In this document: one piece after another, positions 23,507 through 48,400 of the stretch
Numbering within the stretch: position 1 is the first letter of the stretch
Layout: every line of letters starts with the position of its first letter
DNA from: Bacillales bacterium UBA4682
GTDB taxonomy: Bacteria; Bacillota_I; Bacilli_A; RFN20; CAG-288
Reading direction: 5' to 3'
Assembly: GCA_002404995.1 (NCBI GenBank)
Contig: DHKY01000014.1
Location: 72,620 to 136,619 of the forward strand
Length of the DNA stretch: 64,000 nt
Translations under genes and position numbers: made by a program
Notes under the pieces: model-generated
Databases searched by the model: none
The model's input: only the letters and a program-made list of their open reading frames with translations
Told to the model about the DNA's origin: nothing

Positions 23507-25441
23507 TCACTTGATTCTTCCTTGCTCGTCTTTGACAAGGAATTCCCGGATTTCGAGCAGACATTCAAGCAGCAGAGGGTTGAACTTTCCGCACTCGCCA
23601 TTCCTGATCCTGTCAATTGCCTTATCCGGAGAATAGGCCTCCTTATAAACACGTTTGGCCGTAAGAGCATCATACACATCCGCGAGAGACACCACCTGTG
23701 CGGCAATCGGTATCTCATCTCCGACTAATCCCTCTGGATAGCCTTTGCCATCATATTTTTCATGGTGGTAAAGGCAAATCTGATAGGCATATTTCACAAG
23801 CGGCTCTTTCTGGTATTCCCGTACGTTCCTAACCCTATGGGCACCATAGACCGTATGCTTCTTGACTTCCTCAAATTCTTCTTTCGTCAGTTTTCCGGGT
23901 TTATTCAGTATCTTGGAATCAATCTCGACTTTTCCGATATCGTGAAGCGCAGAAGCCGTAGCAATCAAATAGACATCATCCTTTGATAGGTTATATCGGT
24001 CCGTTTTCCGCCTAAGAGCGACAAGCAGACGTTCGGTTATCTTGTTGATATTCGTAACGTGCTCTTTTCCCCTTCCTGAACGGAATTCACTGACCTGGCT
24101 GAGGATATCCACAAGAATATGACTGCATTTTTCTTTTTGATTGTTTTCGCTGGAAACAGTGGAGAGCAGACGACGTTGTTTCTGATAAAGATGGATTGTA
24201 TTCAGTACACGCCTATAGACGACTTTCGCATCGAAAGGACGGCTGATGAAATCAGACACTCCCCTTTCGTAGGCTTTCCGAATGGTCTCCGGGGATTCAT
24301 CTTCGGTAATAGTGATAACCGGAATCTCCTCAAGAAGATGCGAGTCTGTCCTCTTCTGCAGGACACCAAAGCCATCCCTGTCAGGCCTGAGGATGTCAAG
24401 AAGAACAAGAGCAATCTCTTTTCCTTCGTTTGCAAGAATTTCAAGACACTCCTTGCCTCCCTTGGCTTCCCTGACATTGAATTCATTGCTTAAAATCGAT
24501 GAGAGAATCTCACGATTTAATGCGGAGTCATCCACAATCAGAATGGTCTGCTTATCCGGGGAAGAGGAAATCTGTATGGTATGGTCAGTAACAACTAGGT
24601 TCTTCTTTGCCTTCGCTCGGTAGAGAAGCTTATCCGCACGCCTGACTGCTTTTTCAATTGTCTGCTTTTCACTGAAGGTGGCACCTACGCTGAAAGTCAG
24701 GTTGATTTCGGCATAACCGGGGAAGATGATTGTCTTCAGGCGCTTTAAGATAGCTGTCAGCTTAGTCTCATAATTGCCTTTATCCGTTTCCGGAAGAACC
24801 AGAAGGAATTCGTCTCCTCCGTAACGGATCAGCTTGTCCCTCTTTCCAAGATCCTTCTTCAGCTCCTTCGCAAAGACTTTCAGGACATAGTCCCCTGCGA
24901 CATGGCCGTAGACATCGTTGTAGACTTTGAAGTCGTCTAAATCGATCCTGGCTACACAGGCAGAAAGAGTCGAATTCTTGATTTCTTCTTCATAAAAGCG
25001 GCGATTAAAGGCACCGGTAAGAACATCCGTATAGGTCTTCTCATAGTATTCATTGATGCGGGTGAGTAGTTTGACCTCTCCAGAAACATCAACGACATTC
25101 TTGTTGTCGAATTCACGAAGAAGTTCCCTGACACAGGGTTTGGAATCGATTTCGAGATAACGGGAGATGACAAAATAGATGCCATCCTTTGAGAACTCGA
25201 TTTTCACCTGATCCTGCTTGGTATTTATCGCCTTTGCAGAGGTACAGTTGTCGCAAGGATTCTTCTTTCCCCAAAAAGAATAGCAGGGGCAGTGCAGAGT
25301 TGCTGAATTTCCATCGGGACAAAGACCTGCAATCTCATCCTTTTTCAGAATACGGACGACATCGAAGACATTGCGGTAACTATCCCTCTCGGATTGAGCC
25401 TCAGCCTCACTTAAAGAATATGTTTTTTCTTTTTCAGTCAT
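23507..25441 (-). CDS. c-di-GMP signalling protein with domain order Cys-rich N-terminal region, GGDEF, REC, HD-GYP
   Basis: RYGGDEF active-site motif. Receiver ILIVDDS...LLDILRPDRDGF. HD-GYP motifs HDIGK and HHEKYDGKGYP. N-terminal CPDGNSATLHCPCYSFWGKKNPCDNC. RBS GGGAGG. Start overlaps the end of the kinase gene by 8 nt. Confidence 0.8.
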   Translation of the reverse strand: MTEKEKTYSLSEAEAQSERDSYRNVFDVVRILKKDEIAGLCPDGNSATLHCPCYSFWGKKNPCDNCTSAKAINTKQDQVKIEFSKDGIYFVISRYLEIDSKPCVRELLREFDNKNVVDVSGEVKLLTRINEYYEKTYTDVLTGAFNRRFYEEEIKNSTLSACVARIDLDDFKVYNDVYGHVAGDYVLKVFAKELKKDLGKRDKLIRYGGDEFLLVLPETDKGNYETKLTAILKRLKTIIFPGYAEINLTFSVGATFSEKQTIEKAVRRADKLLYRAKAKKNLVVTDHTIQISSSPDKQTILIVDDSALNREILSSILSNEFNVREAKGGKECLEILANEGKEIALVLLDILRPDRDGFGVLQKRTDSHLLEEIPVITITEDESPETIRKAYERGVSDFISRPFDAKVVYRRVLNTIHLYQKQRRLLSTVSSENNQKEKCSHILVDILSQVSEFRSGRGKEHVTNINKITERLLVALRRKTDRYNLSKDDVYLIATASALHDIGKVEIDSKILNKPGKLTKEEFEEVKKHTVYGAHRVRNVREYQKEPLVKYAYQICLYHHEKYDGKGYPEGLVGDEIPIAAQVVSLADVYDALTAKRVYKEAYSPDKAIDRIRNGECGKFNPLLLECLLEIREFLVKDEQGRIK

Positions 25442-28400
25442 CCTCTTGACCTCCCTCTACCGATTTCTTCTTCAAACAGGAGTTCAAGGTGTTCTTAAGG
25501 ACATCCCTATGGATAGGCTTGGCGATATGGGCATTCCTTCCCGCATCTAAGGCATCCTGTACATCTTTTACAAAGGCACTTGCCGTCCTTGCGATGATTG
25601 GGATTTCCTTGGCCTCTGGATGATTCGAATCACGGATTGCTTTTGTTGCTTCATATCCGTTCCTGCCAGGCCTCCTGACATCCCTGAGGATAGCGTTGTA
25701 CGTTCCTTTCTTAGAAGAAAGGAATTTCTCTACGACCTGTTTTCCATCCTTGGCAACATCTGCCGTTGCTCCTTCGGATTTCAATAGCTCAAGGGCAATC
25801 TCTGCATTCAGATCATTATCCTCTGCAATCAAGAAATGCCTTCCCTTCAAGTCAAAGACAGTATCGTCTTCGGAAACCGAATTCTTAAAGCGCTCGACTT
25901 CAATCAGCTTTTCCTTAAGGTTGACTTCACTGAAAGGCTTGGCAAGGAAGCCATCGATGTCGATTTCAAGCGCCTTTGTTTCAATATCCGTCCAGTCATA
26001 AGAGGTGAGGAAGAGAATCGGAGTATCTACCGGAATAATCTTCCGGATTTCCTTTGCCGTATCAAGTCCGTTCCTGCCTGGCATCTGCCAGTCCAGAATG
26101 ACAGCATTGTATTCTTTTTTCTCAGCGTAACGTTCCTTCACAAGCTCGACAGCAGCTTTACCACTATATACAGCATCAAAAACGACGCCCGTATCAGACC
26201 TATTTTCCTTAATACCGTCACAGACCGATTTTTCATCATCTACAAGAAGAATCCGGCTCCTATGATGGTTGTGCCAGAAATCCTTATCTTCTTCCTCATG
26301 GGTAAGATGAAGGGATAATTCGACCGTAAAGGTTGTACCTTTACCAAGTTCACTCTGCAAATCAATCGTTCCACCCCTAAGGTCAATAATGTTCTTGGTG
26401 ATTGCAAGACCAAGACCGGTTCCGGATTCCTTGTTCGTAGTAGAATTCTCAGCCCGGGTAAAAGGATCAAAGATTATCTTCTTGAATTCATCTGAGATGC
26501 CATAACCATTATCCGTAACAACAAACCGAAGTCTTTCAAAGGACTGAGAACTCTGCCCTAAATCGGTAATCTGAAGTCCGATTTGTCCGCCTTCCGGAGT
26601 ATACTTGATGGAATTAGAAAGAAGATTAATCAAAATCTGATTGATACGGGTCTTATCTCCCATGAATAACTCATGGGACCTGACACCGACATTGATTCTC
26701 AGTTCCTGCTTTTTCGCATTGGCCATCGGGCGAATGACAACATTGACCGATTCGATGAGCTCATCTAAAGAGAAGGCAGACTGACGGATTGTCCTTTTTC
26801 CGCTCTCAATTTTAGAAATATCAAGGATGTCGTTGATTAGTCCGAGAAGATGGTTGCTCGCTGCCGTGATCTTCCGGGAATACTCTTTCACTTTTGTCTC
26901 ATCCCCTGTGTTTTTAGACAGAAGGGTCGAGAACCCAATGACGGCATTCCTTGGCGTACGGATATCATGGCTCCTGTTGGAAAGGAAGGTGGTTTTCGCC
27001 TTATTGGCTTCTTCCGCAACTTGCAGAGCCTCAGAAAGCTGTTCATTATGTACCTTTTCAAGTTTATTCTTCTGTTTTGAATAATAAACAATGAAGAATA
27101 TAACAATTCCTGCAATTAAGATAAGGACGGATGCAAGAATTGCAGCTGCTTGCAAAGGATTGCGTTTCCTGAACAATAGAAGTGAACCAGAATTCTTATG
27201 AATGTTTGCCTCGCTAATATACTTAGATAAATCCGACTCTGAAATGCTAGCAACATAGCTGTTAAGAGAAGCAAGAACATTGGTATTGATATCACGGGAT
27301 ACTGGAATTGTGACATTGACAGTCTGTCCAGGAACAAGACTTGTGACCAAGGAACTTCCGGTTTCATAAATATAGTACTGCCTAGAATCCCGCGTTCCAA
27401 AAGCGATATCCGCTTTTCCCTTTTCAACCGCCTGCAGACAGGCTCTGGAATTATCACAGAGAATAACTTCTTCATAATCACTGGTCGAATATTGCTCTTC
27501 CCTTCCTCGGACAATGGCAATACGGCTGGCTTTGCCATCACTATCTGGTCTCTGTGCAAAAGAAAGGACAGAAGTCAGGATTGGAGCACTGTTAATATAT
27601 CCGAATTTCGAACACCTAGAAGAAGTCATGTTCCTTCCTAAGAAGAAGGCAAATTCTCCAGAGTCGAGTTTTCCTTCCGCATCCGTCCTATCGGAAGCAA
27701 AGGTGTATTCCGTCTTGATTCCTGTTCTTTGGCAATAATCATCAAGAGCGGATACAAGGACCCCTTTGGGCTTGCCATTATCCTCATAAGCATAAGGAGC
27801 TGTGTTTTCCCTGCAGAGGACCTTCAGTTTTCCGATATTGCTTAGTTCCTTTTCCCTCTCATCGCTCAAAAGGAAAGTGTTGTTCGCTACACGAAAATAG
27901 GTATCATAGAGTGTATCTTGGAAGTTGGGATTGACCTCGTCTATCCTTTTCCTGGCCTCATCCAGCTTCTGAATCAGTCCTGTGTTCCCCTTGGTAGAAG
28001 CAAAATAATAAGGGCGAGGGGCAAAGTTAGCAACGATTCTAGTGTTAGCAATGGGAGAAAGGGATACACTGGAAATAACATCCACTTTTCCATCAATCAA
28101 AGCCTGCTTCTGCTCATCTGCGGTCTTATAATACACAATCTCGTAATTCAGTTTTTCCGAATCAAGATAAGAGAGAACTTCTCCGTTACGAGTGGCTGCC
28201 GATTCCCATAAACCAACTTTGATTAACGCTTGACCGTAAAGATTATGTTCTCTTAGCCCGTTTGTCTTTAGAGCGCAAAGAGTCGTATAAACAGTTCCAT
28301 AGCTTCTCTGAGGAAATTCAAAGTTTTTCTCAGTGCCAGAGTTCTTAAGCAGCGGACCTAGAAGGTCGACTTTCCCTTCTTTAAGATCCGAAAGTGCTTT

Positions 28401-28715
28401 GCCGACAGCCTCGTTTCCGTCTGAGCTTCCATAAGGTACATATTCCATCTGCCAGCCTGTATATTCAGAAATTTTCTCAAGATAATCATAATTGTATCCA
28501 GTCACCTTTCCGGAATGACCGAAGAAGCTCCTTCCTTCCTGGGTAGGAAAGGCAACACGTATAATCGTTCTCTGTTCTTTGTCTTTTTGCTTTAAGGCAC
28601 TCTTTTCCTCGAATAACACATGAGTAGGATTCATTGGTTTAGAAAAAGAAGCAGAAAACAGCATCAAAATAGCAGAAAATCCCAAAAGCGTTCTTATTTT
28701 TCTCTTTAACGACAT
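25434..28715 (-). CDS. Hybrid sensor histidine kinase: two periplasmic solute-binding (Venus-flytrap/SBP_bac_3-like) domains, TM, HisKA, HATPase, REC, REC
   Basis: Signal peptide. TM AAAILASVLILIAGIVIFFIVYY. H-box SHDIRTPRNAVIGFSTLL. G-boxes GTGLGLAITK. Two receivers (RILLVDDE...VILDWQMPGRNG and HFLIAEDND...ILRDVRRPGRNG). Confidence 0.8.
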   Translation of the reverse strand: MSLKRKIRTLLGFSAILMLFSASFSKPMNPTHVLFEEKSALKQKDKEQRTIIRVAFPTQEGRSFFGHSGKVTGYNYDYLEKISEYTGWQMEYVPYGSSDGNEAVGKALSDLKEGKVDLLGPLLKNSGTEKNFEFPQRSYGTVYTTLCALKTNGLREHNLYGQALIKVGLWESAATRNGEVLSYLDSEKLNYEIVYYKTADEQKQALIDGKVDVISSVSLSPIANTRIVANFAPRPYYFASTKGNTGLIQKLDEARKRIDEVNPNFQDTLYDTYFRVANNTFLLSDEREKELSNIGKLKVLCRENTAPYAYEDNGKPKGVLVSALDDYCQRTGIKTEYTFASDRTDAEGKLDSGEFAFFLGRNMTSSRCSKFGYINSAPILTSVLSFAQRPDSDGKASRIAIVRGREEQYSTSDYEEVILCDNSRACLQAVEKGKADIAFGTRDSRQYYIYETGSSLVTSLVPGQTVNVTIPVSRDINTNVLASLNSYVASISESDLSKYISEANIHKNSGSLLLFRKRNPLQAAAILASVLILIAGIVIFFIVYYSKQKNKLEKVHNEQLSEALQVAEEANKAKTTFLSNRSHDIRTPRNAVIGFSTLLSKNTGDETKVKEYSRKITAASNHLLGLINDILDISKIESGKRTIRQSAFSLDELIESVNVVIRPMANAKKQELRINVGVRSHELFMGDKTRINQILINLLSNSIKYTPEGGQIGLQITDLGQSSQSFERLRFVVTDNGYGISDEFKKIIFDPFTRAENSTTNKESGTGLGLAITKNIIDLRGGTIDLQSELGKGTTFTVELSLHLTHEEEDKDFWHNHHRSRILLVDDEKSVCDGIKENRSDTGVVFDAVYSGKAAVELVKERYAEKKEYNAVILDWQMPGRNGLDTAKEIRKIIPVDTPILFLTSYDWTDIETKALEIDIDGFLAKPFSEVNLKEKLIEVERFKNSVSEDDTVFDLKGRHFLIAEDNDLNAEIALELLKSEGATADVAKDGKQVVEKFLSSKKGTYNAILRDVRRPGRNGYEATKAIRDSNHPEAKEIPIIARTASAFVKDVQDALDAGRNAHIAKPIHRDVLKNTLNSCLKKKSVEGGQEDD

Positions 28716-31354: not shown

Positions 31355-31771
31355 TTATTCTTTTACCGGAACAGGCTTCTTCTTGGAATATCCAAGGCTG
31401 AAGGCAACCGCTGCAAGAATGACAGCAACAAAATCGAAGATCCAGAAGAGGAAGAAGAGAGCATCAAAGGAATTGCCATCGACTCCGAAAGCAACATTGG
31501 AGATGAAGAGCCTTTCGGTGTTGAGTAAAACAGCAATCGACACCGCATAGAAGACAACTGGAAGGATTCCTAAGATTCCGAAATCCTTAAAGAGGCAGAG
31601 AAGAGTTGTAACAAGTCCTAAGACAATCCTGACAACCGCGACAGGAGAAACCGGAGAAAGGTAGTTTCCGCCTCGTGCTGTGTAGAAAATCAAAGTAAGT
31701 AATCCGCAAAGGAGAGAAGCGAGGGAAAGATAGAAGCCTTTGCCTTTGGAAGCTAGGAATTTCTTCAACAT
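31355..31771 (-). CDS. Small 4-TM membrane protein (cassette 1), paralogous to 48573-49016
   Basis: RBS AAAAGGAGG lies inside the GH3 3' end, giving near-contiguous stop/start. Shares TARGGNYLSPVSPVAVV (copy 2 has TTGYFAGNTPDAAVV) and a 4-TM topology with the copy-2 protein. Confidence 0.55.
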   Translation of the reverse strand: MLKKFLASKGKGFYLSLASLLCGLLTLIFYTARGGNYLSPVSPVAVVRIVLGLVTTLLCLFKDFGILGILPVVFYAVSIAVLLNTERLFISNVAFGVDGNSFDALFFLFWIFDFVAVILAAVAFSLGYSKKKPVPVKE

Positions 31772-31772
31772 A

Positions 31773-34772
31773 CTAATTATCCTCCTTTTTACCAGCAATC
31801 CTGTTATAGATGATTAATCCAAGGGATGCAGCAGCAAGAACACTGAAGACAGATGTCAAAGCGATGAGGGTGTTATCATACCAAGTATTGACCTGGACAA
31901 TCTTGCTCGAAGAGGTAAGACCGTTCCTAGCAGCAGAATTGGCAAAGACATAAAGCTGACGATGAATTGCTTCACGCCTGTTGGACCTAAGCTTATAGTC
32001 CTTGGTAATATCGATACCCTGTAGATACTTGGCAAAGCCGGTTCCGGAAGTGCAGAACCTAGTAGTACCGGCTTCATAGGCAAGCTGAGGTTCCCTTAAG
32101 GAGCCCTGCTTCTGTCCGAAGTCCGTTGTAACAGCGCCTTGGAATCCCCATTCCTTTTCCCTGACATTCTTCCAGAGATTGGAATGATGGCCGGTCCAGA
32201 CAAGTCCCAAACGATTGAATGCACCCATGACAGCAGTGCAGCTCTTATCTTCTTTTCCCGTCGTTTCGAAAGCATATTGGAAGGCACGGAGATAGACTTC
32301 ACGGATAGCCTGCTCATTGGAGAAAGTGCAGACACCGATACGGTTGGTTTCCTGATCGTTGAGGAAGAAGTGTTTGAGATAAGGAATCGTTCCCTTGCCC
32401 CTAGCACCCTTGACCTCAGCTTCGCAGAGCTTTCCGGCAAGGAAACCGTCTTCGGAATAGTACTCGAAGTTACGGCCTCCGCAAGGAGTACGATGCGTGT
32501 TGGCAGCCGGGCCATACCAGCCGACTCCTCCGCCCCAGAGTCCTTCTTCGCCGAAGGAATCGCCGACTTCATTGGTCAGGGTTACATTCCAGGTACCGGC
32601 AATGATAGTCTCAGTCGGATATGAAACCATCAGTTCATCAGTCTTCTTGACATTCTCGGCATCATACTGCTTTGTATAGTCTTCGATGTAATTGGATTTT
32701 GTCCAAGCAGACGGGCCATCGACCGCAGTGGTAGCATTGAGTCCGACGGATTCCCTCTTATTACGTCCCTGAGCAGTTGAGGAATAATAGTCATCAAGGG
32801 TAAGCTGGTCCAGAAGCTTATCCCAGTTCTCGTTGTCATAATCAGCACCGATCATCCTAGCCAGCGTGTATTTCTTTTCGGCTCCGGTAGTGATAGAAGA
32901 GGTGTCACTGCTTCCCTTTTCATAAGCAGAAGGAGAAGTGGTTCCATCCGTCTTTTCCGAATAATAAGAAGCGATTTCCTCTAACCTCTTATTATTTGCT
33001 GAAAGATTCTTGACACCAGTTGGATAGGTTCCGTTCCAGTCCTTACGAGAGAGATAAGTGATCTTCTGGTCGCTGTCTCCAACATAATAGTTCAGATCAG
33101 TGGAATCGAATTGATTGGTAATCGTTGCATTGTTTCCGCTTAAACGATACTCATCCTTATCGAAAGATCCTTTTGTGAATTTGCGTGCTTTGGAAGCGTC
33201 GCCAGCAGCATCCATTCTGGCTTTCTGAACTCCATCCACCTTGGATTCCAGAATGTTGTTCAAGGCTTCGTGGGTTCCATTGCCGATGGCAAAATAATAA
33301 TCACCCTGCTCTAAGACATAAGTCTTGCTGTTGGTATAGTCGTAGCTGGCTAAATCTGAAAGAGAGACATCAATCGTCACTTTCTCAGACTGTCCAGGAG
33401 CAATCAAGCCGGTTTTCGCAAAGCCGACAAGCTGAATTGCACTCTTCTCGATGATTCCAGATCCGTAGGGAGCCTGGGCATAGAGTTCAACGACATCCTT
33501 GGCAGAGTAATTCGTAGAATTGTTCTTCACCGTGACTGTTGCTTTGGCTGTCTTGTTGTTCCAATCGACCTGCCTATCATCCAAGGTCTGAGTAAAGGTG
33601 GCATAGCTTAAGCCATAGCCAAAGGGGAACTGGACTTCCTCGTTGTAACGCCAGTTGCCTTTCGATACAACAGCACCAGCCTTAGAATCGGAATTTCCTC
33701 TTCCTAAGACATAATCCTCGTAACGGGTTTCAAAGTAACGGTAACCGACATAGATACCTTCCTGATAGACGAGATACTTACGGGAATCGGGGTTGACGAT
33801 ATCATCCTTATTTGCATAATCGAAGTTTCCGAAGTTCCTCATCGAAGGATTGGCTTCCACATCATAAGCATAAGTGTCCGCAAGATGTCCGCTCGGGCAG
33901 GTCTTACCGACTAAGATATCAGTTACAGCATCAAGTCCGACTTCGCCCGGACCGCCGATATAGAGGCAGCTATCGATATTGTATTCATCGAGGAAGCCAA
34001 GTTCCGGAGTATTGAAGGTATTGACTAAGACAATGCGCTTCTTAAACGGCCCGTTTTTCCTTTCTTCCAAGACAGACTTCTCTTCATCCGTTAAGGATAA
34101 GTAATCGGATGTAAGGTCAGTGCCTTCGCCGCCGATTCTTGTCAGGACAAAGACAGCAGCATCGGAATAGTCGTTATAGGAGGCTTTCCTATCCGAATCG
34201 AATTCCGAGGCATTGATTTCATTGACTTGGTTGATGACACGGAAATTCAGTGTCTTGCCAGTCCAACCAGTCTTTTCGATGAAGCCTCTCTTCTCGTCGT
34301 AATTCTTTTTATAGAAATCGTAGATAGTCTTGTTGATTTCAATCTTATCCTGGCAAGCCTTGAGCAAGTCCCTCTTCCGCTCTTCGCTGGAAGTGACACC
34401 ACCGCTTCCGGTTCCTCCAAGAGCTAAGTCGACCTGATTATATCCGAAGAATGTGACCTTAGCCTTTTCGTTGAGCGGTAAAGCATTATTTTTGTTAGTC
34501 CTTAAGACTGTTCCTTCCGCCTGGACCTGTTTTGCGACATCCCGCGCATGATTCCTAACGGATTTATAGTCAGAATAGTCGCTCTTATAGTGAATAGGAT
34601 TTTCGTTTCCGTCTCCGGTTTCAATAATCTTCGTTGAACTGATGTTGAGGAATTTGTTGATGTATCCGGACCACTCCTTGGTGACTGCAATTCCGCCGAT
34701 AGATGCGGAGAGAAGGATAGTCGATGCGGAAAGGATTGCACGCCATAATCCGGTTCTGCCGATTTTCTTCAT
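31773..34772 (-). CDS. Membrane-anchored glycoside hydrolase family 3 with permuted domain order (cassette 1)
   Basis: RBS AAGGAG. N-terminal signal/anchor and C-terminal TM LIALTSVFSVLAAASLGLIIY. The GH3 C-terminal-type domain (FPFGYGLSYATF) precedes the TIM-barrel motifs (RTPCGGRNFEYYSEDGFL, KHFFLNDQE, GFQGAVTTDFG). Confidence 0.75.
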   Translation of the reverse strand: MKKIGRTGLWRAILSASTILLSASIGGIAVTKEWSGYINKFLNISSTKIIETGDGNENPIHYKSDYSDYKSVRNHARDVAKQVQAEGTVLRTNKNNALPLNEKAKVTFFGYNQVDLALGGTGSGGVTSSEERKRDLLKACQDKIEINKTIYDFYKKNYDEKRGFIEKTGWTGKTLNFRVINQVNEINASEFDSDRKASYNDYSDAAVFVLTRIGGEGTDLTSDYLSLTDEEKSVLEERKNGPFKKRIVLVNTFNTPELGFLDEYNIDSCLYIGGPGEVGLDAVTDILVGKTCPSGHLADTYAYDVEANPSMRNFGNFDYANKDDIVNPDSRKYLVYQEGIYVGYRYFETRYEDYVLGRGNSDSKAGAVVSKGNWRYNEEVQFPFGYGLSYATFTQTLDDRQVDWNNKTAKATVTVKNNSTNYSAKDVVELYAQAPYGSGIIEKSAIQLVGFAKTGLIAPGQSEKVTIDVSLSDLASYDYTNSKTYVLEQGDYYFAIGNGTHEALNNILESKVDGVQKARMDAAGDASKARKFTKGSFDKDEYRLSGNNATITNQFDSTDLNYYVGDSDQKITYLSRKDWNGTYPTGVKNLSANNKRLEEIASYYSEKTDGTTSPSAYEKGSSDTSSITTGAEKKYTLARMIGADYDNENWDKLLDQLTLDDYYSSTAQGRNKRESVGLNATTAVDGPSAWTKSNYIEDYTKQYDAENVKKTDELMVSYPTETIIAGTWNVTLTNEVGDSFGEEGLWGGGVGWYGPAANTHRTPCGGRNFEYYSEDGFLAGKLCEAEVKGARGKGTIPYLKHFFLNDQETNRIGVCTFSNEQAIREVYLRAFQYAFETTGKEDKSCTAVMGAFNRLGLVWTGHHSNLWKNVREKEWGFQGAVTTDFGQKQGSLREPQLAYEAGTTRFCTSGTGFAKYLQGIDITKDYKLRSNRREAIHRQLYVFANSAARNGLTSSSKIVQVNTWYDNTLIALTSVFSVLAAASLGLIIYNRIAGKKEDN

Positions 34773-34849
34773 AATCTGTTACGCTCCTTGTAACTTGAAG
34801 GGATGTACTCGAGTTGTCCCTTGCTGAGAAAAGTATAATCTTCTCTTAT

Positions 34850-34896
34850 GGCAAGAAAAGGAGTTGGCAAGAAAATGCACTTTTTTGGCAAAAAAT
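34850..34896. promoter_or_regulatory. Three direct repeats TGGCAAGAAAA / TGGCAAGAAAA / TGGCAAAAAAT in the kinase-to-GH3 intergenic region (sense-strand TTTTCTTGCCA). Spacing 16 and 21 bp. Candidate LytTR-regulator binding sites.
   Basis: Seen directly. The repeats lie 78-125 bp upstream of the GH3 start. A 21-bp spacing matches the periodicity of LytTR (AgrA-type) direct-repeat sites. Confidence 0.4.
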
Positions 34897-34921
34897 GTAT
34901 TGGTACCCCTTTTTATAGGAA

Positions 34922-36214
34922 TTAAGCGGTTACATTGGCATCTTCTGGAAGTGGGAAGATGATATCTGCATTATAAATATCGTTTTCCTTGTAGAAACGG
35001 ATGTTCCCGTTGTATTTTTTCACAATGTAGCAAATGCTCTTCACACCGAAGCCGTGATATCGGTTGTCGCCCTTGGTTGAAAGAGGAAGTCCGTCCTTGA
35101 ACTGGACAGGAGTATTGCAATAGTTTTCGATGTGGACAGAGATGATATGTCCTTTCTGGCTGATCTTAAGAAGGATAAAACGCTGCTTTACATCCGTTAC
35201 TTTTTCCTCGTATTCAATCGCGTTATCCAATAGATTTCCAAACAAGGAAGTCAGATCGCCTATTCGAAGGAAACCCAAAAGGTCTTCCTTTACCATAATA
35301 TAAAAAGGAATATTCCGGCTATTGCAGATATAAGTCTTCTCACTGAGGACAGTATCAAGGGCTTTGTTTCCGGTCTTTGGAGAGCATTCGTATTCGTTGA
35401 CCGTTTTCTCTAACTCGCTGAGTTCTTCTTCGCTCCTGTTCCCACGTTCCTTGAAGTCGTTGATGAAATGCTTCAGATCGTGGGCTTTCCTGTTGAGGAC
35501 ATCGATATTGTTCTTTACCGATTCATAATACTTGTCGGATTGGTTGATGAATCGTTCCAGATAGATGTTCTCATTCACCTTGTTCTTATAGCCAAGGAGT
35601 CCGAACTGAAGCATGAGAGAAATGACATCGCAGAAGACAAGTGGAAGACGGGTGACCCAGAGTCCGTCGATTTCATAGACCTGAAGAAGGAACTGGAGAA
35701 GGTAACAGAACCTGGCTGAGAAGATGGCAATTGGAAAGACGCCCCCTCCTTTCAGAGTAACTCCTTTGGAAAGATCACTGAAGCGATAAATAATAAAACA
35801 ACAAAGTCCATAGACAACCAGCCTGACACTGACAGAAAGAAAGAACCACCCAATGGAATTAATCTGGTTTTTGAAAGGCAGGTAGATCAGGTTCTCGATA
35901 TTATGGGAAAGATTCTGGATTAGCTGAGCTCCGACACAGCAGAAGAGAAGATCTTTCAGCTTGTTTTCGAAGCAGATAATCAGTCCCAGGAAGGAGAGGA
36001 GGAATATGGTAATCGATGACAAGCCTTGAATGACTTGGTTTAAGAGGTTCGTCAGCCTGACGGAGCAGATTGCGTAGAGGGCAAACGTAATGACAGCAAG
36101 CAAAACGAAGTGTTTCCGTCTTTTGAAAAAAGGAACGAAAAGAAGCTCCGCAAAGAATATCTGGAGAATATATCCGTGAGAGGAATGAAGGACAAAAAGT
36201 TCAGACAGACTCAT
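34922..36214 (-). CDS. AgrC-like (HPK10, GHKL) membrane sensor histidine kinase (cassette 1)
   Basis: Polytopic N-terminal domain. H-box NRKAHDLKHFIN. N-box GNLLDNAIEY. G-box HGFGVKSICYIV. Start overlaps the RR stop by 4 nt. Confidence 0.75.
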   Translation of the reverse strand: MSLSELFVLHSSHGYILQIFFAELLFVPFFKRRKHFVLLAVITFALYAICSVRLTNLLNQVIQGLSSITIFLLSFLGLIICFENKLKDLLFCCVGAQLIQNLSHNIENLIYLPFKNQINSIGWFFLSVSVRLVVYGLCCFIIYRFSDLSKGVTLKGGGVFPIAIFSARFCYLLQFLLQVYEIDGLWVTRLPLVFCDVISLMLQFGLLGYKNKVNENIYLERFINQSDKYYESVKNNIDVLNRKAHDLKHFINDFKERGNRSEEELSELEKTVNEYECSPKTGNKALDTVLSEKTYICNSRNIPFYIMVKEDLLGFLRIGDLTSLFGNLLDNAIEYEEKVTDVKQRFILLKISQKGHIISVHIENYCNTPVQFKDGLPLSTKGDNRYHGFGVKSICYIVKKYNGNIRFYKENDIYNADIIFPLPEDANVTA

Positions 36215-36918
36215 AGTTTCTCTCCGAAATACTTCGTCAGCTCATTCAGGAAAGAGGCCTTATACACTCGGCTGAGAGGCAACGCCTCTGTTCGGATAAA
36301 GACCTCGCTGTTATTGAAGTTATCAACATACCGCAGATTCACAAGAAGGGAACGATTGATTTCGGAGAAGCCCTGTCCCTTAAACCTGTCTTTGATACTA
36401 TCCATCGATCCCCGCCTCCGATAGGTGTTGTTCTCCAGATGGAAATAAAGATAATGCTTATTGCTTTCGATATACCTGATATCCGGAATTCTCACCTTGT
36501 GGACTTCGTTGGAAGAACTGATGACAATAGATTTTTCTTCCTCTTTTCCAATATGGGAAAGGAATTTGTTCCTCTTAATACGGAACAATTCATAGTCCAT
36601 CGGCTTGATCAGGAAATCATAGGCGTTCACTTCGTACCCATCGACAGCATACTGTACCCTCTCAGTCAAAAAGACCAGGCAAACATCCTTATCGACTTCC
36701 CGGAGCTTCTTCGATGCTTCGATTCCGTTCCTTTCCGGCCTGGCCACATCCATGAAGATAAGACTCGCATCACCTTTATATTTCGAAACAAAATCTGCCC
36801 CGTTCCGGAAATAAGAAACGGAAAAGGAAACTTTGTTCTCTTCCTGATAACGGGCAAGATAATTCCGGATCAAATCAATCCATTTTTCCTGGTCTTCAAC
36901 GACTGATATTTTAATCAT
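36211..36918 (-). CDS. LytTR-family response regulator (cassette 1)
   Basis: Receiver MIKISVVEDQE...FMDVARPERNG plus a C-terminal LytTR domain (IRYIESNKHYLYFHL...). No SD sequence. An extended -10 TGTGTTATAAT sits 6 nt upstream of the ATG. Confidence 0.8.
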   Translation of the reverse strand: MIKISVVEDQEKWIDLIRNYLARYQEENKVSFSVSYFRNGADFVSKYKGDASLIFMDVARPERNGIEASKKLREVDKDVCLVFLTERVQYAVDGYEVNAYDFLIKPMDYELFRIKRNKFLSHIGKEEEKSIVISSSNEVHKVRIPDIRYIESNKHYLYFHLENNTYRRRGSMDSIKDRFKGQGFSEINRSLLVNLRYVDNFNNSEVFIRTEALPLSRVYKASFLNELTKYFGEKL

Positions 36919-36935: not shown

Positions 36936-37036
36936 GGAAACGAAGAAAGAAAGGCAGACAAAAAGAAAGGAAAATACGGCATTATTCGACATTTGAATAT
37001 CATTGTCAAAACCATTGATTCTTGTTTTCAGCTCTG

Positions 37037-40756: not shown

Positions 40757-41950
40757 CTACTTGCTAGCGTGTTCGTTCGTCCAACGATACCTTTCACGGG
40801 CAGCATCGTAATCGGAATCTTTGCCTTCCCTGTAATTAGTATGAGAGTAGATCTGGTAAAGCAGATAAGCACCAGAAGGCTGTCCATCGTTATCGATATC
40901 GTAATCGGTATCGGTAGCACCGGTTTCACCCTTCTTGATTCCGTTATCGTGGATGCTTCCGTCTTTGACAGCGCCCTTAAGAGCAGTCTTAATGGCTTCT
41001 TTCTTATCATCTTCAAGCTTGCCATAAGCGCAGACAGTGTCGTTCCTGATTGGGTCAAGAACAGCTGCAGTATAGGTCTTGGTGAAGACGGATTCATCGT
41101 TATGGTACTTGCTATCGGTCTGAACAAAAGCGGATCCGTAACGGATATCGAAGAATCCGACAGCAACATCGATGACACCATTCCTGAGGTTATCAACCAT
41201 TTCAGGATAGGACTTCTGAGTTGCGTTGATCCTAGCTAATTTCTTATCATTTTCAGAAAGCTTGTCATAAGCGGCTTTATCGAAGAAGCCTTTGGTATAT
41301 CCCTTGTCATATAAATACTTAGTCGGATAAATGAAACCAGAGGAAGAAGTAGCAGCCATAGTTCCCCAGACAGCATTGCCAGCATGCCTTTCATCTAAGG
41401 AAATTTCACCATCACCATTGGTATCAAGGGCAGGTTTGTTAAGAGCAATACGTTCAGAATCCTTAAGAGTGAAGACAACAGAGCAATAGAAGTTGACTAA
41501 AGTAGAGGACTGTTCTCCACGATAGACGTATCCATCAGCACCATTCCTATGCTTACGCTGATTCTCACGGGCAGCCTCATCTAATCCTTTGTAGTCATCA
41601 GCCTGGACTTTGTAGCCAGCACGGCCAGCAGAAAGAAGAAGGGAAACAGCACCCGGCTGTTCGATCGTCCTCTGGGCATAGCCAGAAGCCGTAAGGAAGC
41701 CACCGTCGATTTGACCAGCTGCAAGAGCAGTGGTAGTGGCAGCATAAGTGGAGCCGACATCGATGCTGAAGGAATAACCAGGAGCATACTTGTCAAGGAT
41801 TGGGGCTAAAGCTTTCGCACGGGTCAGAAGAGTAGCAGGGTCATTGGACGGAACTAACTGAAGGTGAATCTTTTTGCCTTTGTTTCCGCAGCCAGTAAGG
41901 CTTAAGGATAATAAGGCAAGCGTAACGACAGAAGTCAGAGTCTTTTTCAT
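40757..41950 (-). CDS. PhnD/SsuA-like substrate-binding lipoprotein with a ~120-aa C-terminal extension
   Basis: RBS AAGGAGG. Lipobox LSLTGCGNK. Venus-flytrap motifs (KIHLQLVPSNDP...AAGQIDGGFL). The ORF is open upstream to 42028. Confidence 0.6.
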   Translation of the reverse strand: MKKTLTSVVTLALLSLSLTGCGNKGKKIHLQLVPSNDPATLLTRAKALAPILDKYAPGYSFSIDVGSTYAATTTALAAGQIDGGFLTASGYAQRTIEQPGAVSLLLSAGRAGYKVQADDYKGLDEAARENQRKHRNGADGYVYRGEQSSTLVNFYCSVVFTLKDSERIALNKPALDTNGDGEISLDERHAGNAVWGTMAATSSSGFIYPTKYLYDKGYTKGFFDKAAYDKLSENDKKLARINATQKSYPEMVDNLRNGVIDVAVGFFDIRYGSAFVQTDSKYHNDESVFTKTYTAAVLDPIRNDTVCAYGKLEDDKKEAIKTALKGAVKDGSIHDNGIKKGETGATDTDYDIDNDGQPSGAYLLYQIYSHTNYREGKDSDYDAARERYRWTNEHASK

Positions 41951-42403
41951 ACTGAATTTAATTCCTCCTTTGTATGAAAAACAGTCAACAGCTGTAGTAA
42001 GGAAGAAATCACTCAGAATGGATACCATTTCTGAACCCGGTTAAGGGAGATTTAATTGAGAAGCGGATAGTCCTCATTTAATGGCTGAGGGTAGAAACAG
42101 AGTCACCATAACCAACTCACTATATCCGATTTCTTTCCTGCTTTATTTTAAGGCAGGAATACCCATTACAGAAAAAATAGCGCTTACAGTCAGAATGATC
42201 TACTCGTTGGAACATCCATTTTTTACTGATTTTATGGGAAAAGCTGGCAATTATAAAAAATCAGTTACATTTTTTCAAAATAGTACCTGAAAAGGTAAAC
42301 TAAGGTAATAATGTTGGATTTTTGTATATTAATTTCGTCTTTGTTTTGTTCTTCCGCTCTTTTTCTTTATAATTTTCATATATTAAAAAAAGAGGAGATT
42401 CGT

Positions 42404-43255: not shown

Positions 43256-43300
43256 AGCTTAATAATTTTCTAAAATCCGATTTTCGTGAGGAATTACTTA

Positions 43301-44016
43301 TGCTTAAAATTGCCATTGTCGAAAACGATCCAGAGCAGATACAGACGACTTCCGAAAGGTGCACAAGATACTGCAAAAGGAATGACTTGTCCTGTTCAAT
43401 CCAGTCTTTCCAAAATGGATTTGACTTCCTTGAAAGCGACTTTTCGCTTTTCGATGTCATTTTCATGGACATCGACAGGCCCGGCATCAACGGAAGGGAA
43501 ACTTCGGTTAAAATCCGGGAAAAGGGGGTCACGACTCCTCTTATTTTCGTTACGAATCTTCCTCAATATGCCATCGATGGATACAAAGTCCAAGCCTTGG
43601 ACTTCATTCTCAAGCCAAGGACGTTTGCTGATTTTACTCTAGCAAGGAAGAGAGCACTTCTCAGCACGGAAAAGAGCGAAGACAAAACTTTTGTTCTCAA
43701 TATCCATGGTTCTTTCCAGAAGTTTAAGAACAGTGATGTCATTTATTTTGAGAGGGTTCGCCACGACGTGCATCTTCATCTCCAAAATGGTGAGATGATT
43801 GTTTTTCGTTCTTCACTGAATCGAGTCGAGCCCTTACTCGATTCCCAGATCTTCATCAAGTGCAATTCCGGATGCATCATTAATCTCAGCCGAGTGAAGT
43901 CCAGGGACGGAGATGTCCTGATCAGGGAAAACGGGGATAATATCTCTATTTCCCGTTCCCGGAAAAAAGAGACAAGGGCGAAGCTGAACGAATACTATCG
44001 GGCAAATCGGATATGA
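43301..44016 (+). CDS. LytTR-family response regulator (cassette 2)
   Basis: Receiver MLKIAIVENDPE...FMDIDRPGINGRE plus LytTR C-terminus. Paralogous to 36211-36918. Confidence 0.8.
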
Positions 44017-45317
44017 ACGAAAGCGGAATCATTGGCATTGTCACGAGATTCGGCCTTGCCTCCTTCTATCTGGAAATCCTTACCGCTAGGATAATTGTCC
44101 TTTTCTCAGCCAAGAAACGGAAAATTTTTCCCATCCGTCTGCTCCTATGTCTTCTTCTTTGTTTTGCATGCTATTTCCTTCCTTCGGTAAAAATAGGACA
44201 TTTTTCCTATTCCTATTGTATTTGTGTTGTCATCGCCTTTCTCTGTGGATTATTCCTTTATAAAGAAAAAGTTCCTCTTATCTTCTATAGTTCAATTGCT
44301 GCCTGGGGTATTCAGCATATCGCATGGAACCTACTCAGTATCGTCTTTGACTTGATTCCAAATATTCGTTTGTATCCGGTAATTGAAATCGAATCAATTT
44401 ATTATTGCGGATTTCTGTTCATCTATGGAATCTTCTTCCTTTTCTTTTATTTGTTCCATATCGAATTCCGGTACAGCAAAAAGCATTTCGTTTCCTTTGT
44501 CTTTGCTTCCCTAAGGCTAGTTGCGACAAGGTTCCTTTCCCAATCGATTACTTCTTGGAATATCCCCATCCGAATCTACACAAGCCTGACTGCCTTTCTT
44601 TCCCTGGTCATTAGGATCGCCTATCCTTATCTTTCGGTTCTGATTGAGAAAGAGAGAAATCTAGTCAACGAGAAAAAGAACCTTGAAAGCAGGATCACCT
44701 TGCAGGCAAAGCAACAGGAACTATCCAAGGAAACCATCGATGTCATCAATAGGAAGTTCCATGACAGGAAAAACCAGATTCTATCCCTGGAACGAAGGCC
44801 TCAGAGCCAGTCGAAGGATTTTGCAAAAGAACTTGGAAACAGCATTGATATCTATAAGGATATTGCTCGGACCGGAAACGAAGCAGTCGACATTATCATC
44901 ACTCAGAAGTCACTCCTATGCACATCAAAGAATATCCGCTTCACCTATATTCTCGATGGAAAAGCATTGGATTTCAGGAGCCGGAGCGATATCACCTCGT
45001 TATACGGAAACATTATTGATAACGCCATTGAAGCAACAAGTCTCGAAGAAGGGGAATTCCGCCTCATTAAGCTCAAGACCTATAAACAGAACGGCTTTGC
45101 CATCATCAGCGAAGAGAACTACTGTCACAAAAACATCCAGTTCGGCAAAACCGGTCTTCCGATATCCTCAAAACAGGATTCCATCAATCACGGCTACGGA
45201 ACCAAATCCATCCAATACATTGTCCATAACTACCATGGACAGTTATCCAGGAAGCAGGAAGACGGGATTTTCTACCTGTCCATTCTCCTACCGCTATCTA
45301 CCAAAAAAGACGCCTGA
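44013..45317 (+). CDS. AgrC-like (HPK10, GHKL) membrane sensor histidine kinase (cassette 2)
   Basis: 6-7 TM N-terminal domain. H-box NRKFHDRKNQIL. N-box GNIIDNAIEAT. G-box HGYGTKSIQYIV. Overlaps the RR stop by 4 nt. Confidence 0.75.
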   Translation: MNESGIIGIVTRFGLASFYLEILTARIIVLFSAKKRKIFPIRLLLCLLLCFACYFLPSVKIGHFSYSYCICVVIAFLCGLFLYKEKVPLIFYSSIAAWGIQHIAWNLLSIVFDLIPNIRLYPVIEIESIYYCGFLFIYGIFFLFFYLFHIEFRYSKKHFVSFVFASLRLVATRFLSQSITSWNIPIRIYTSLTAFLSLVIRIAYPYLSVLIEKERNLVNEKKNLESRITLQAKQQELSKETIDVINRKFHDRKNQILSLERRPQSQSKDFAKELGNSIDIYKDIARTGNEAVDIIITQKSLLCTSKNIRFTYILDGKALDFRSRSDITSLYGNIIDNAIEATSLEEGEFRLIKLKTYKQNGFAIISEENYCHKNIQFGKTGLPISSKQDSINHGYGTKSIQYIVHNYHGQLSRKQEDGIFYLSILLPLSTKKDA

Positions 45318-45333
45318 TTACCGATTGTGTCAT

Positions 45334-45428
45334 TTTTCTGTCCGAAAATGGCACAAAGTCAAGCGCTTACATTTGGAAATGGTATTGTTTTCTTGCTCCG
45401 AAAGCCCTTTCTTATCGTCAAGGGCTTT
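45334..45428 (+). promoter_or_regulatory. HK2-GH3 intergenic region with two imperfect direct repeats (ATTTTTCTGTCCGAAAA and ATTGTTTTCTTGCTCCGAAAG, 54 bp apart) sharing the TTTTCTTGC core with cassette 1, then a stem-loop AAAGCCCT...AGGGCTTT
   Basis: Seen directly. The hairpin has a weak U-tract, so it may be an attenuator or partial terminator. Confidence 0.35.
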
Positions 45429-45448
45429 TGGAAGAAAGGAACAAACAA

Positions 45449-48400
45449 ATGAATCCGAAACTATTTCGTGGATTAACTGTTGTCAGTGCTTTCTTCCTAG
45501 CATCAAGCGTCAGGGCAAGTACTTTAAGGGAAAAGTATGCAACCCAGCTTGACCAGACTTTGGGAACAAAGTCTAGCGAAACCCGCTATGAGAAGGTCGA
45601 CGATGGTGATCAATCTGACCCGTGGAACTTCAAAGGAAAGTTCAAAACGGCCAAGGAAGCAGTCGAAGGCTACAAGGAATTCTCTATCCGTGAAGCCCAG
45701 GAGACTTTCGCTCTCTTAAAGAACGAGAACGCAGCTCTTCCGCTGAAGAAGAACGCCAAGATTACCAGGATGGGATTACGTTCCTACGCTCCTGTCTATG
45801 GAAACTCCGGTGGTTCTATTCCGGATAAGAACATCATCGACAATGGGAACAAGATCTTCGAAGCTTTCAAGGCAAGAGGATTCGATCTCAATCCGAGCAG
45901 GTTCAAAGCCTATGAAAACTACTTCAAGGATAAAGCCTGGGGCGGAAAAGGATTCGGTGCGACTCCGGCTGAATACTCCGATGTTACCGTTACCGATTCT
46001 GTTGCGGAACTCTCCTTAGCAGAATTAAAGGAAAGCAATCCGGACTTCAACAAGGACTACGGTTCTTATTCCGATGCAGCCGTTGTCGTTGTCGGACGTC
46101 CTGGCGGAGAATCCAAGACTTACGATGTCGGAGCTAATCCGGAAACGACTACTGGGAACATCAGGGGTCTCTCCGATAAGGAAAAGGAAATCATCAAAGA
46201 AGCCGAAGACCACTTCGACAAAGTCATTGTCCTTGTCAACTCCACTACGACCAGGGAAATCGAAGAACTCAAAAACGATCCGAATATTGATTCTATCCTC
46301 TGGATCGGTTATCCGGGCGCTTATGGTTTCTTAGCAGTTGCAGATGTCTTAAACGGAACGGTCTCTCCGAGCGCTTACTTAGGCGACATCTATACCGCTA
46401 ACAACAAGACCAATCCGGCAAGGCAGTCCTTCGGTAACATTCCGTGGGCAAATGCAGCTGACTTCGAATCTGCTGAAAACGTCAATTCCTACTTAGTCGA
46501 AGCAGAGGGCATCTACCAAGGATACCGTTACTATGAAACCCGTTATAACGATATCGTCAACGGAAGGTACAATGCCCAGAGTGCAAAAGCCGGAACCTAT
46601 ACGACTGCTGATTCCAAAGTCGCTACGGTCGACGGCAACTGGAACTATGACTATGAAGTGACCTATCCGTTCGGCTACGGATTAAGCTACACCACTTTCG
46701 AGCAGACTCTTGATGAAGTCAAGATCGATGGCAACAAGAAAAATGCCCTAGTTACCGTCACGGTCAAGAACACCGGAAAGGTCAATGGCAAGAAAGCTAT
46801 CCAGCTTTACGCTCAGACTCCTTATACCGAATACGACCGTACCAACGGAGTCGAAAAAGCCGCCATCCAGCTTGTCGATTACGAAAAAACGAAAGAACTC
46901 AAGCCAAACGAAAGCCAGACCATCACCCTTCATGTCGATAGGTCAAACATTGCTTCCTATGACTACAAGAAGGCCAAGACCTGGATTCTCGATGCTGGCG
47001 AATATTCCTTCGCAATCGGCGACAACTCTCACGATGCTTTGAACAACATCCTCGCAAAGCAAGGCAAGACAACCGCCAATGGCAGGGACTACAACGGCGA
47101 CAGCAGCAAAGTCTATTCTTGGAACTGGACCGAATTCGATAGCGCTACGTTTGCCTATTCGGAAACTGGAAAGGAAATCACGAACCAGCTCTCCGATGGA
47201 GATTACTCCAGGGATTTGAATACCTTCAAGCCAAATACTGTCACCTATTTCTCCCGTTCTGATTTCAACGGAACTTTCCCGAAATCCTATGAAGGTCTTT
47301 CTGCCGATGGTCGTCTCAAAGAGCTTCTCAAGAACGACTTCATTCAGTTAAAGACCGATGAAGACACTTCGGACGTCAAGTTCGGTGATACTTCTTCCTC
47401 CTTGACTTTAGCGGATCTCAAAGGCGCCGATTTCTCTGATCCACGCTTTGATGAACTTGCCAACAAAGTCACTGTTGACGAATTCTTAGACTTCGCAAGC
47501 AACGCTTTCCACAATATCCAGAAGATTGAATCGGTCGGATATGCTGGAAACAAAGCAGATGACGGCCCGGGCGGCAGTGATACAAGCTACCTTGATTCCG
47601 GTTCTTATCAGGGCAACAAGTTCACGGATACCGACGAAGCAAAAGTCGGCGAAAACAAGTACAGGGGAACCCGTACTGCTCCGACTCCTCAGAACTTAGC
47701 CTATTCCTTCAACAAGGAATTAGCCTATGAAAACGGTGAAATCATCATCGGAGAAACCTCTCTGATCCTGAACCTTCCGATCATCATCGGTCCTGGTGGA
47801 AACCTCCATCGTCATGGATACAATGGACGTGGCGGAGAATACTATTCTGAAGATCCAATCCTCTCCGGCTATATCGGCTCTGCTGTTGTCCAGGGTGCCC
47901 AGTCCAAGGGCTGCCTTGTCAACATCAAACATGCTGCCTTCAACGATCAGGAACGTAACCGTTCTGGTATCGCTGTCTTCAGGAACGAACAGAAAGCACG
48001 TGAGTTAGAACTCCGCAACCTCAATGCCAGGTTCACTGCCAAAGGCAAACCAGCAAGCTTCTACGATGACGAAACCAAAGCCAATACGTATAAAAATGGT
48101 GCCTTAGGCGTCAGGACTTCCTATAACCGTATCGGTGCCGTTGCTTCTAGCGCAAACTATGCTGTCCAGCAGACCATCAGGCGTGATGAATGGGGATTCC
48201 ATGGTTACTCCGTTACCGATTTCACCGGTGTCTCCTTAAAGGCAGCTCCGAAGGAATCCATCCTTGCTGGAACTTGTGCCTTCTGCGGCTTTGGAAAACC
48301 GAGCCTTGACTACTGGAATACAGAATCCCTAACTAAGGATAAGAATAGGGCCAATGCAATCCACACCAACATCAAATATGTTCTCTATTCTCTTGCAAAC

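Follow-up and report, generated by a model that had tools for sequence, protein, structure and literature searches.

In Escherichia coli, the LytTR regulators of the BtsS/BtsR and YpdA/YpdB systems act through direct repeats. Binding of YpdB to promoter DNA has been reported (PMC4847170). The sites of AgrA are 9-bp imperfect direct repeats that lie 12-13 bp apart and upstream of the -35 region (PMC5600425), and the agr promoters bound by AgrA have a suboptimal spacing (PMC4227749). The DR1 and DR2 elements of ComE comprise 9 bp each and are joined by a 12-mer linker (PMC4005675). In Butyrivibrio proteoclasticus B316, PUL7, 21 and 33 encode LytTR regulators beside GH3 enzymes that are secreted and carry a transmembrane helix at the C-terminus, as noted in 2010 from the genome annotation (PMC2914790), and a LytTR regulator is included in one Roseburia PUL table (PMC5320581). 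Our search of the literature on LytTR with GH3 or beta-glucosidase yielded no published description of a LytTR-GH3 operator or of the function of such a system.

Direct repeats and probable promoter layout of cassette 1

The window, by which we mean the whole 64-kb stretch of DNA that was analysed, contains two cassettes in which genes for a response regulator (RR), a histidine kinase (HK) and a GH3 enzyme follow one another. In cassette 1 the order on the minus strand, which is the sense strand, is RR1, HK1, a 149-bp spacer and GH3-1, with the following features:

36981..37009, minus strand: sigma-70-like promoter TTGACA-17-AATAAT upstream of RR1 (promoter scan)
36211..36918, minus strand: RR1, REC + LytTR response regulator (Pfam PF00072 and PF04397)
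34922..36214, minus strand: HK1, multi-pass membrane histidine kinase with a GHKL (HATPase_c_5) domain (Pfam)
34886..34898, minus strand: DR1, distal direct repeat (ACATTTTTTGCCA), with a homologous repeat in 29 of 33 orthologous loci
34865..34877, minus strand: DR2, proximal direct repeat (CATTTTCTTGCCA), 21 bp from DR1
34849..34859, minus strand: third copy (TTTTCTTGCCA), 16 bp after DR2 at about -34 to -24, the usual place of a -35 box
34832..34837, minus strand: putative -10 hexamer TATACT of the GH3-1 promoter, starting 27 nt after DR2
34798..34822, minus strand: 5' leader stem-loop AAGGGA-CAACTCGAGTACA-TCCCTT (MFE fold)
31773..34772, minus strand: GH3-1, with the Pfam domains Glyco_hydro_3_C, Fn3-like and Glyco_hydro_3 in permuted order
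31355..31771, minus strand: small hydrophobic protein of about 138 aa (translation) with several predicted membrane segments, directly 3' of GH3-1

HATPase_c_5, the only domain of HK1 in the Pfam scan, is of a type also present in AgrC and ComD, and the closest full-length solved structure to RR1 is that of ComE (4cbv). No NCBIfam equivalog above cut-off was obtained for RR1, HK1 or the small downstream ORF, and the AgrB family was absent from the Pfam scans of the window genes and from the gene tables of 11 related loci. The neighbours of the cassette genes are SDR, DegV, GH3 and small membrane ORF genes. The small ORF following GH3-1 is probably co-transcribed with it. An ORF of 138-155 aa without Pfam or NCBIfam match directly follows the GH3 gene in every fetched locus for which a gene table was available. 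Both GH3 proteins of the window (31773-34772 and 45449-48571) have the permuted order of GH3 C-terminal domain, Fn3-like domain and GH3 N-terminal domain, and both carry hydrophobic segments at the two ends, which in GH3-1 are located at the N- and the C-terminus. The presence of these segments suggests that both are membrane-anchored cell-surface enzymes. Elsewhere in the window, a gene for a GGDEF + receiver + HD-domain protein (23507-25441, minus strand) is overlapped by a gene (25434-28715, minus strand) for a hybrid histidine kinase that combines a sensor domain of the SBP_bac_3 family with two receivers. Glycan genes are abundant around this pair (GH94, GH2, GH43, MFS sugar transporter, esterase).

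The spacer is delimited by the HK1 stop at 34922 and the GH3-1 ATG at 34772, with the Shine-Dalgarno sequence AAGGAG at 34789-34784, and its sense strand reads ...ATACATTTTTTGCCAaaaaagtgCATTTTCTTGCCAactccTTTTCTTGCCAtaagagaagatTATACTtttctcagcAAGGGAcaactcgagtacaTCCCTTcaagttacAAGGAGcgtaacagattATG. It contains three TTTT(C/T)TTGCCA copies (minus strand; TTTTTTGCCA at 34895-34886, TTTTCTTGCCA at 34875-34865 and again at 34859-34849), the TTGCCA ends of which are 21 bp and then 16 bp apart. The initial annotation had reported three direct repeats between the kinase and GH3-1 genes with these spacings, a description that proved exact to the base. The exact 11-mer has three occurrences per 64 kb, two of them in this spacer, and DR1/DR2 is the single exact match to TTGCCW-N15-TTGCCW in the window; a search of the 64 kb for further exact pairs that might belong to a regulon found none. 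Places where a 10-mer is accompanied by two more copies (at most one mismatch) within 50 nt number two in the window, and first-order Markov simulations gave 0.16 such places per 64 kb, with at least one in 14% of the simulated windows. Taken by itself, the triple repeat of cassette 1 is suggestive rather than decisive, a chance origin being only moderately improbable; it is significant because it is conserved in orthologues. The only other such place in the window, at about 40886 (10-mer ATCGTTATCG), is located in the ORF 40757-42028 (minus strand), a gene for an ABC substrate-binding protein of the phosphonate-binding type.

The -10 hexamer of GH3-1 and the positions relative to +1 were deduced from conservation. 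They place the TTGCCA hexamer of DR1 at about -66 to -61 and that of DR2 at about -45 to -40 from the start site, which is predicted near 34826-34824 (minus strand). When the related loci described below were anchored on the proximal repeat, TATACT, TATGCT, TACAAT or TGnTAnnnT was found at the -10 position, and in nearly all loci the proximal hexamer is followed at 27-28 nt by the start of a -10, often one of the extended type (TGnTAnnnT). As TTGCCA matches TTGACA at five of six positions and TATACT lies downstream, the hexamers could in principle be -35 boxes, either of a single sigma-70 promoter or of several that overlap. However, DR2 is separated from the -10 by 27 nt and the third copy by 11 nt, both values fall outside the range of 16-18 nt, and it is the longer distance that is conserved across loci. 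Moreover, the consensus promoter scan detected no canonical sigma-70 promoter on the sense strand of the spacer; no -35 match is present 16-18 nt upstream of TATACT and nothing at the -35 position resembles TTGACA. We therefore regard this explanation as extremely improbable. In particular, the third copy, which lies within the 27-nt interval and 16 bp (1.5 helical turns) from DR2, is too close to the -10 to be a -35 box.

No terminator was detected in the window between HK1 and the repeats and, therefore, read-through from the RR promoter could also express GH3-1. The leader stem-loop of GH3-1 is not significant when taken alone (z -0.27). Its CTCGAG loop is conserved and its stem covaries in L001 and L003-L006, the compensating stems of GH3-1-type leaders being AAGGGA/TCCCTT, GAGAAGC/GCTTCTC, AGAAAG/CTTTCT and CAAAAC-type. 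Neither of the two GH3 leaders of the window gave a match in Rfam at E<=1.

Conservation of the repeat pair in related loci

With HK1 as the search query, an alignment was built and 79 genome loci were fetched. Their hosts include Clostridia MAGs, Pseudoflavonifractor, Gemmiger, Allofournierella and Bifidobacterium. Carriers that can be cultivated are Pseudoflavonifractor capillosus ATCC 29799 (L020), P. intestinihominis CLA-AP-H29 (L017), Bifidobacterium asteroides ESL0199 (L026) and Allofournierella massiliensis DSM 100451 (L078). The order RR-HK-GH3, and with it the adjacency of a gene for a REC + LytTR regulator, is retained in the large majority of these loci, and the kinase-GH3 spacer measures about 80-480 bp in all but a few. 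All 13 loci with a GH3 that is 61-80% identical to GH3-1 have TTGCCW-N15-TTGCCW in the spacer, formed by two copies of TT(T/C)TTGCC(A/T); L005 has three copies at 21+21 bp. The exact pattern TTGYCW-N15-TTGYCW is found in the kinase-GH3 spacers of 28 of the 32 cassette-1-type loci (5.6 kb of spacer in total) and likewise in L017, which brings the total to 29 of 33 loci, and it occurs with one mismatch in L019 and L026, both from Bifidobacterium. Outside the spacers, only 4 matches were found in about 748 kb on both strands, and 3 of these are located just upstream of an RR gene. The same offset emerged from a test that did not presuppose any motif, in which 76 dereplicated spacers were searched for direct repeats of at least 9/10 identity at offsets of 10 to 40, with shuffles as the control: an offset of 21 was found in 25 of the 76 spacers, every other offset in at most 5, and the shuffles gave 0.4.

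The core that is conserved in the cassette 1 orthologues is TT(T/C)TTGCC(A/T), with the weight on TTGCC. DR1 and DR2 conform to the consensus (A)CAnTT(T/C)TTGCC(A/T), in which a 9-bp core and a 12-bp spacer add up to 21 bp from centre to centre, and the ACA and the T-tract that flank DR1 are conserved among the orthologues as well. In L170, a 90% relative, DR1 and DR2 are identical to those of the window while spacers and flanks are altered. The initial annotation had proposed an operator of three copies; its 21-bp pair is conserved, but the 16-bp copy is limited to the window and L170, with no counterpart at that position in all other orthologues. Since this copy has been kept in L170 (TTTTTTTGCCA) while its flanks changed, it may nevertheless be functional, although it stands outside the conserved design. 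A tandem duplication of 16 bp was considered as its origin and rejected, because DR2 and the -10 would then have been 11 nt apart in the ancestor, instead of the conserved 27 nt.

These features are those of LytTR operators: cassette 1 and its orthologues have at least two imperfect repeats of about 9 bp on the same strand, the repeats are spaced in the range of 21-22 bp (12-13 bp spacer), and a REC + LytTR regulator is encoded nearby. We thus see in DR1/DR2 a conserved direct-repeat pair that, as judged from the aligned loci, has a fixed phasing and a fixed distance to the -10 and is tied to a LytTR regulator. RR1 is the proposed binder. On comparative grounds, DR1/DR2 are most probably the operator of the adjacent RR1, and GH3-1 the gene that they regulate. 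The absence of the repeats from orthologous loci had been named beforehand as an argument against such an operator. Instead, direct repeats of the LytTR (AgrA/ComE) form with the predicted 21-bp phasing are present in 29 of 33 loci, plus two with one mismatch, and their conservation in orthologous RR-HK-GH3 spacers supports the suggested control of GH3-1 by the adjacent RR.

The sequence of the repeats differs between groups of regulators. TTGCCW repeats belong to loci with an RR that is at least 37% identical to RR1, the Bifidobacterium hosts included, CAGTTTG(C/T)GC-type repeats, also at 21 bp, to loci with RRs 30-35% identical to RR1, and the TGTGTCA/GTCA class to the cassette 2 orthologues. 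By this comparison, the repeat motif appears to track the clade of the regulator rather than the host. This bears on two other explanations. Firstly, the repeats could be phased T-tracts that stimulate a constitutive GH3 promoter as curved DNA or a UP-like element with no regulator bound, since a run of T4-T6 opens each repeat and 21 bp correspond to two helical turns. However, the invariant part is TTGCC(A/T) and not the T-run, GATTTGCCA or CCTGCCA, with little of the T-tract, is retained in loci of Pseudoflavonifractor and Bifidobacterium, and in other clades CAGTTTGYGC or TGTGTCA takes the same phasing, all of which leaves this explanation with a very low probability. Secondly, the repeats could serve a regulator that is encoded elsewhere, such as a global carbohydrate regulator, and not the adjacent RR. 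Indeed, the window has more cre-like matches than expected (14 against 4.3). However, a global factor does not fit well with a single exact pair in 64 kb, the repeats accompany the RR-HK-GH3 cassette in different phyla, their sequence class changes with the RR clade, and a direct-repeat arrangement of 9+12 is what LytTR regulators typically use (PMC5600425, PMC4005675). We consider a regulator from elsewhere unlikely, if somewhat less so than phased T-tracts, and retain RR1 as the probable ligand of DR1/DR2.

Repeats are also found close to the RR gene itself. In L027, three to four TTTTTGCC copies with 21-bp phasing precede the RR gene (L027:5110-5260) beside a canonical TTGACA-17-TATAAT promoter, and further cases are L013:5130-5156, L036:5132-5158 (minus strand) and L087:3657-3682. 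This suggests autoregulation of the RR in those species. In the window, a TTGCCW pair upstream of RR1 was sought as a test for autoregulation and only the sigma-70-like promoter was found there. As the RR-HK genes of cassette 1 thus appear to have a promoter of their own without repeats, they are not obviously autoregulated.

The RR-HK-GH3 cassette is also present in Actinobacteria (L019 Bifidobacterium aerophilum, L025 Bifidobacterium sp. and L026 B. asteroides), with TTGCCA-type repeats at 21 bp in all three. Because these cassettes carry the same type of repeat at the same distance, the comparison suggests that the module and its operator were transferred horizontally together. In some genomes two kinase-GH3 units are arranged in tandem (L086:1-2690, where the end of a second HATPase_c_5 kinase is followed by a non-permuted GH3, and L089:1-3602); the two cassettes of the window are 8 kb apart.

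Related repeats in cassette 2

Cassette 2 has the same gene order as cassette 1 but is encoded by the plus strand:

43300-44016, plus strand: RR2
44013-45317, plus strand: HK2
45323..45332, plus strand: distal repeat GATTGTGTCA, conserved in all dereplicated cassette 2 orthologues shown
45344..45353, plus strand: proximal repeat GAAAATGGCA, 21 bp after the distal one, in gap-free alignment with L082, L083 and L093
45360..45371, plus strand: conserved palindromic, cre-like element CAAGCGCTTACA, between the repeats and the -10
45380..45388, plus strand: putative extended -10 TGgTATTGT of the GH3-2 promoter, TGnTAnnnT in most cassette 2 orthologues (by eye)
45397..45432, plus strand: GH3-2 leader hairpin, dG -19.4 kcal/mol, z -3.63, with none of 200 shuffles folding as well
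45449-48571, plus strand: GH3-2
48573-49016, plus strand: small membrane ORF after GH3-2

With identities of 32% between the RRs, 33% between the kinases and 35% between the GH3s, the two cassettes look like old paralogues. About 18 loci related to cassette 2 were fetched by searches with HK2, among them about 8 useful loci from a scan of metagenomes for cassette 2 kinases. The orthologues conserve GATTGTGTCA-N11-...G(T/C/G)CA at 21-22 bp, and 11 of 14 loci have TGTCA-N17/18-G(T/C)CA in the 245 bp that surround the kinase stop, as compared to 11 matches in the other 259 kb. The proximal repeat GAAAATGGCA is degenerate in the window, with GGCA where the orthologues have GTCA or GCCA (the relaxed pattern matches at 45328-45353). 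An alternative reading as GTCA...GTCA with a spacing of 29 bp was dropped, since the gap-free alignment with L082 and L083 places the proximal site at GGCA, at 21 bp. By this alignment, cassette 2 has 21-bp direct repeats of its own, with a related motif (...TGTCA / ...G[TCG]CA) and the same geometry. The design that the alignments indicate for both cassettes consists of 21-bp direct repeats that end in G-Y-C-A and are located 27-29 nt before an extended -10.

The bases that the initial annotation had picked out in cassette 2 were different ones, namely ATTTTTCTGTCCGAAAA at 45332-45348 and ATTGTTTTCTTGCTCCGAAAG at 45384-45404, which were thought to share the core TTTTCTTGC with the repeats of cassette 1. 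Both strings exist, but they do not qualify as operators. Their mutual match needs an indel, they are about 52 bp apart, and the spacer contains no direct repeat of at least 9/10. ATTTTTCTGTCCGAAAA represents the variable, non-conserved spacer between the true cassette 2 repeats and is absent from L082-L094, while ATTGTTTTCTTGCTCCGAAAG begins in the -10, extends over the likely start site near 45394-45396 and provides the 5' arm of the leader hairpin. The window contains 7 copies of the core TTTTCTTGC, most of them within coding sequence. In cassette 2 the core lies at or after the -10 and its position is not conserved among the orthologues, which have TTTTCCTGC in L082, TTTTCTCAC in L083 and no such element in L084-L094.

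It was nonetheless conceivable that one operator with the core TTTTCTTGC is common to the two paralogous promoters, with three sites in cassette 1 and two in cassette 2 (45332-45348 and 45384-45404), as the 9-mer is present in both spacers and both cassettes encode a LytTR regulator. This is contradicted by several observations. RR1 and RR2 are only 32% identical, neither cassette 2 element is kept as an upstream repeat in orthologues, the second one lies downstream of the extended -10, and the position of the C in TTTTCTTGC is either T or C in cassette 1 orthologues, where the constant part is GCC(A/T). A common operator of this kind is therefore very improbable. The view that conservation of a repeat between paralogous promoters argues for function is invalid as stated, because the cassette 2 elements are not operators and TTTTCTTGC is not the conserved core. 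As judged from these sequences, the sharing of the motif between the cassettes is coincidental and not above chance, which bears on any inference of cross-talk. The more general conclusion that each GH3 gene is under the control of its adjacent RR appears to hold, although in cassette 2 through bases other than those originally chosen.

The palindromic element at 45360-45371 was compared to the cre sequence TGWAANCGNTNWCA. Its right half and its centre match (AAGCGCTTACA), whereas the left arm is degenerate, resulting in 3 mismatches in the window. The sequence (A)AGCGCTTACA is conserved in cassette 2 orthologues, some of which have 1-2 mismatches to TGWAANCGNTNWCA when read by eye (1 mismatch in L096/L097, TGTAAGTGCTTACA). 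The palindromic AAGCGCTTACA element is found in the cassette 2 orthologues L080-L097 and also in L003/L004 (TGTAACGGCTTACA). If it is a CcpA cre site, it would add catabolite repression of the GH3 promoter. The hairpin of the GH3-2 leader has 13 bp and is conserved in L080-L083, and its 5' arm is the '...CTCCGAAAG' element of the earlier proposal. A role as terminator or attenuator was discarded, since the U-run lies within the stem and no U-tract follows; a 5' leader stem-loop is more likely. An alternative pairing of CCTTTCTT with AAGAAAGG could mask the GH3-2 ribosome-binding site.

Proposed regulation and comparison with known systems

In the mechanism that we propose, HK1 would phosphorylate RR1, and an RR1 dimer would bind DR1 and DR2 in tandem at about -66 to -40. 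RR1 would then recruit RNA polymerase, or re-shape it, at a promoter where the -10 (TATACT, 34837-34832) is not accompanied by a usable -35, and binding of RR1~P would switch on GH3-1 and the downstream small membrane protein. We infer activation rather than repression from the position of the sites, which would be the usual one for activators that make up for the lack of a -35, and from the missing -35 itself. The third copy would represent an additional site, restricted to this lineage, that faces the other side of the helix, overlaps the -35 region and may modulate or limit activation. Cassette 2 would operate in the same mode via its own related repeats at 45323-45332 and 45344-45353.

On a broader view, which we offer only tentatively and hold to be possible rather than probable, the operator would be the cis-element of a widespread mobile module of four genes (LytTR regulator, AgrC/ComD-type kinase, permuted membrane-anchored GH3 and small multi-pass membrane protein) in gut Bacillota and Bifidobacterium. 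A kinase type of peptide quorum sensing would here have been re-used for peptide-less sensing of glycans or glycosides, with the GH3 and the small protein as possible co-sensors that generate or present the ligand, and the two copies in the window would be insulated channels with TTGCCW and TGTCA operators, respectively.

The present findings provide an operator consensus and a promoter layout for an uncharacterised LytTR subfamily that is devoted to cell-surface GH3 enzymes and is common in gut and rumen Bacillota and some Bifidobacterium. The pattern TTGYCW-N15-TTGYCW can be used to predict regulons in genome scans, and the repeats lend themselves to binding assays with defined mutations. 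This also opens to testing the signal of a peptide-less AgrC/ComD-type kinase in glycan-degrading bacteria.

The B316 loci share the association of LytTR and GH3 genes with the cassettes described here, and the part of that paper that concerns them treats co-localisation only, without operator, promoter or phasing (PMC2914790). With BtsS/BtsR and YpdA/YpdB, which sense carbon nutrients, the cassettes would have in common that the LytTR regulator activates a single nutrient-related gene next to it or in its vicinity. However, the E. coli kinases are of the LytS type with a 5TM-Lyt domain whereas HK1 has HATPase_c_5 only, RR1 scores 41.5 bits against a cut-off of 246 for the BtsR model, and the E. 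coli targets are transporters. The ComE boxes of Streptococcus pneumoniae comCDE, comAB and comX show the same 9+12 arrangement with 21-bp phasing (PMC4005675), but they differ in sequence and belong to an autocatalytic competence circuit, whereas here a single structural gene is concerned and pheromone and export genes are lacking. The AgrA sites of agr P2/P3 in Staphylococcus aureus are likewise imperfect direct repeats of about 9 bp, combined with a REC + LytTR regulator and a HATPase_c_5-type kinase, and they lie upstream of a promoter in which the -35/-10 arrangement is defective (PMC5600425, PMC4227749). In contrast to these, the motif is TTYTTGCCW rather than [TA][AC][CA]GTTN[AG][TG], the target is a glycoside hydrolase rather than RNAIII and the agr operon, and the RR operon of this genome has no repeats in front of it. 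Furthermore, among the genes covered by the Pfam scans and gene tables there were no AgrB and AgrD peptide genes, which mark an agr-type quorum-sensing locus beside its kinase and regulator genes. Compared to these systems, the repeats are a cis-element of a known kind within an uncharacterised but widespread module.
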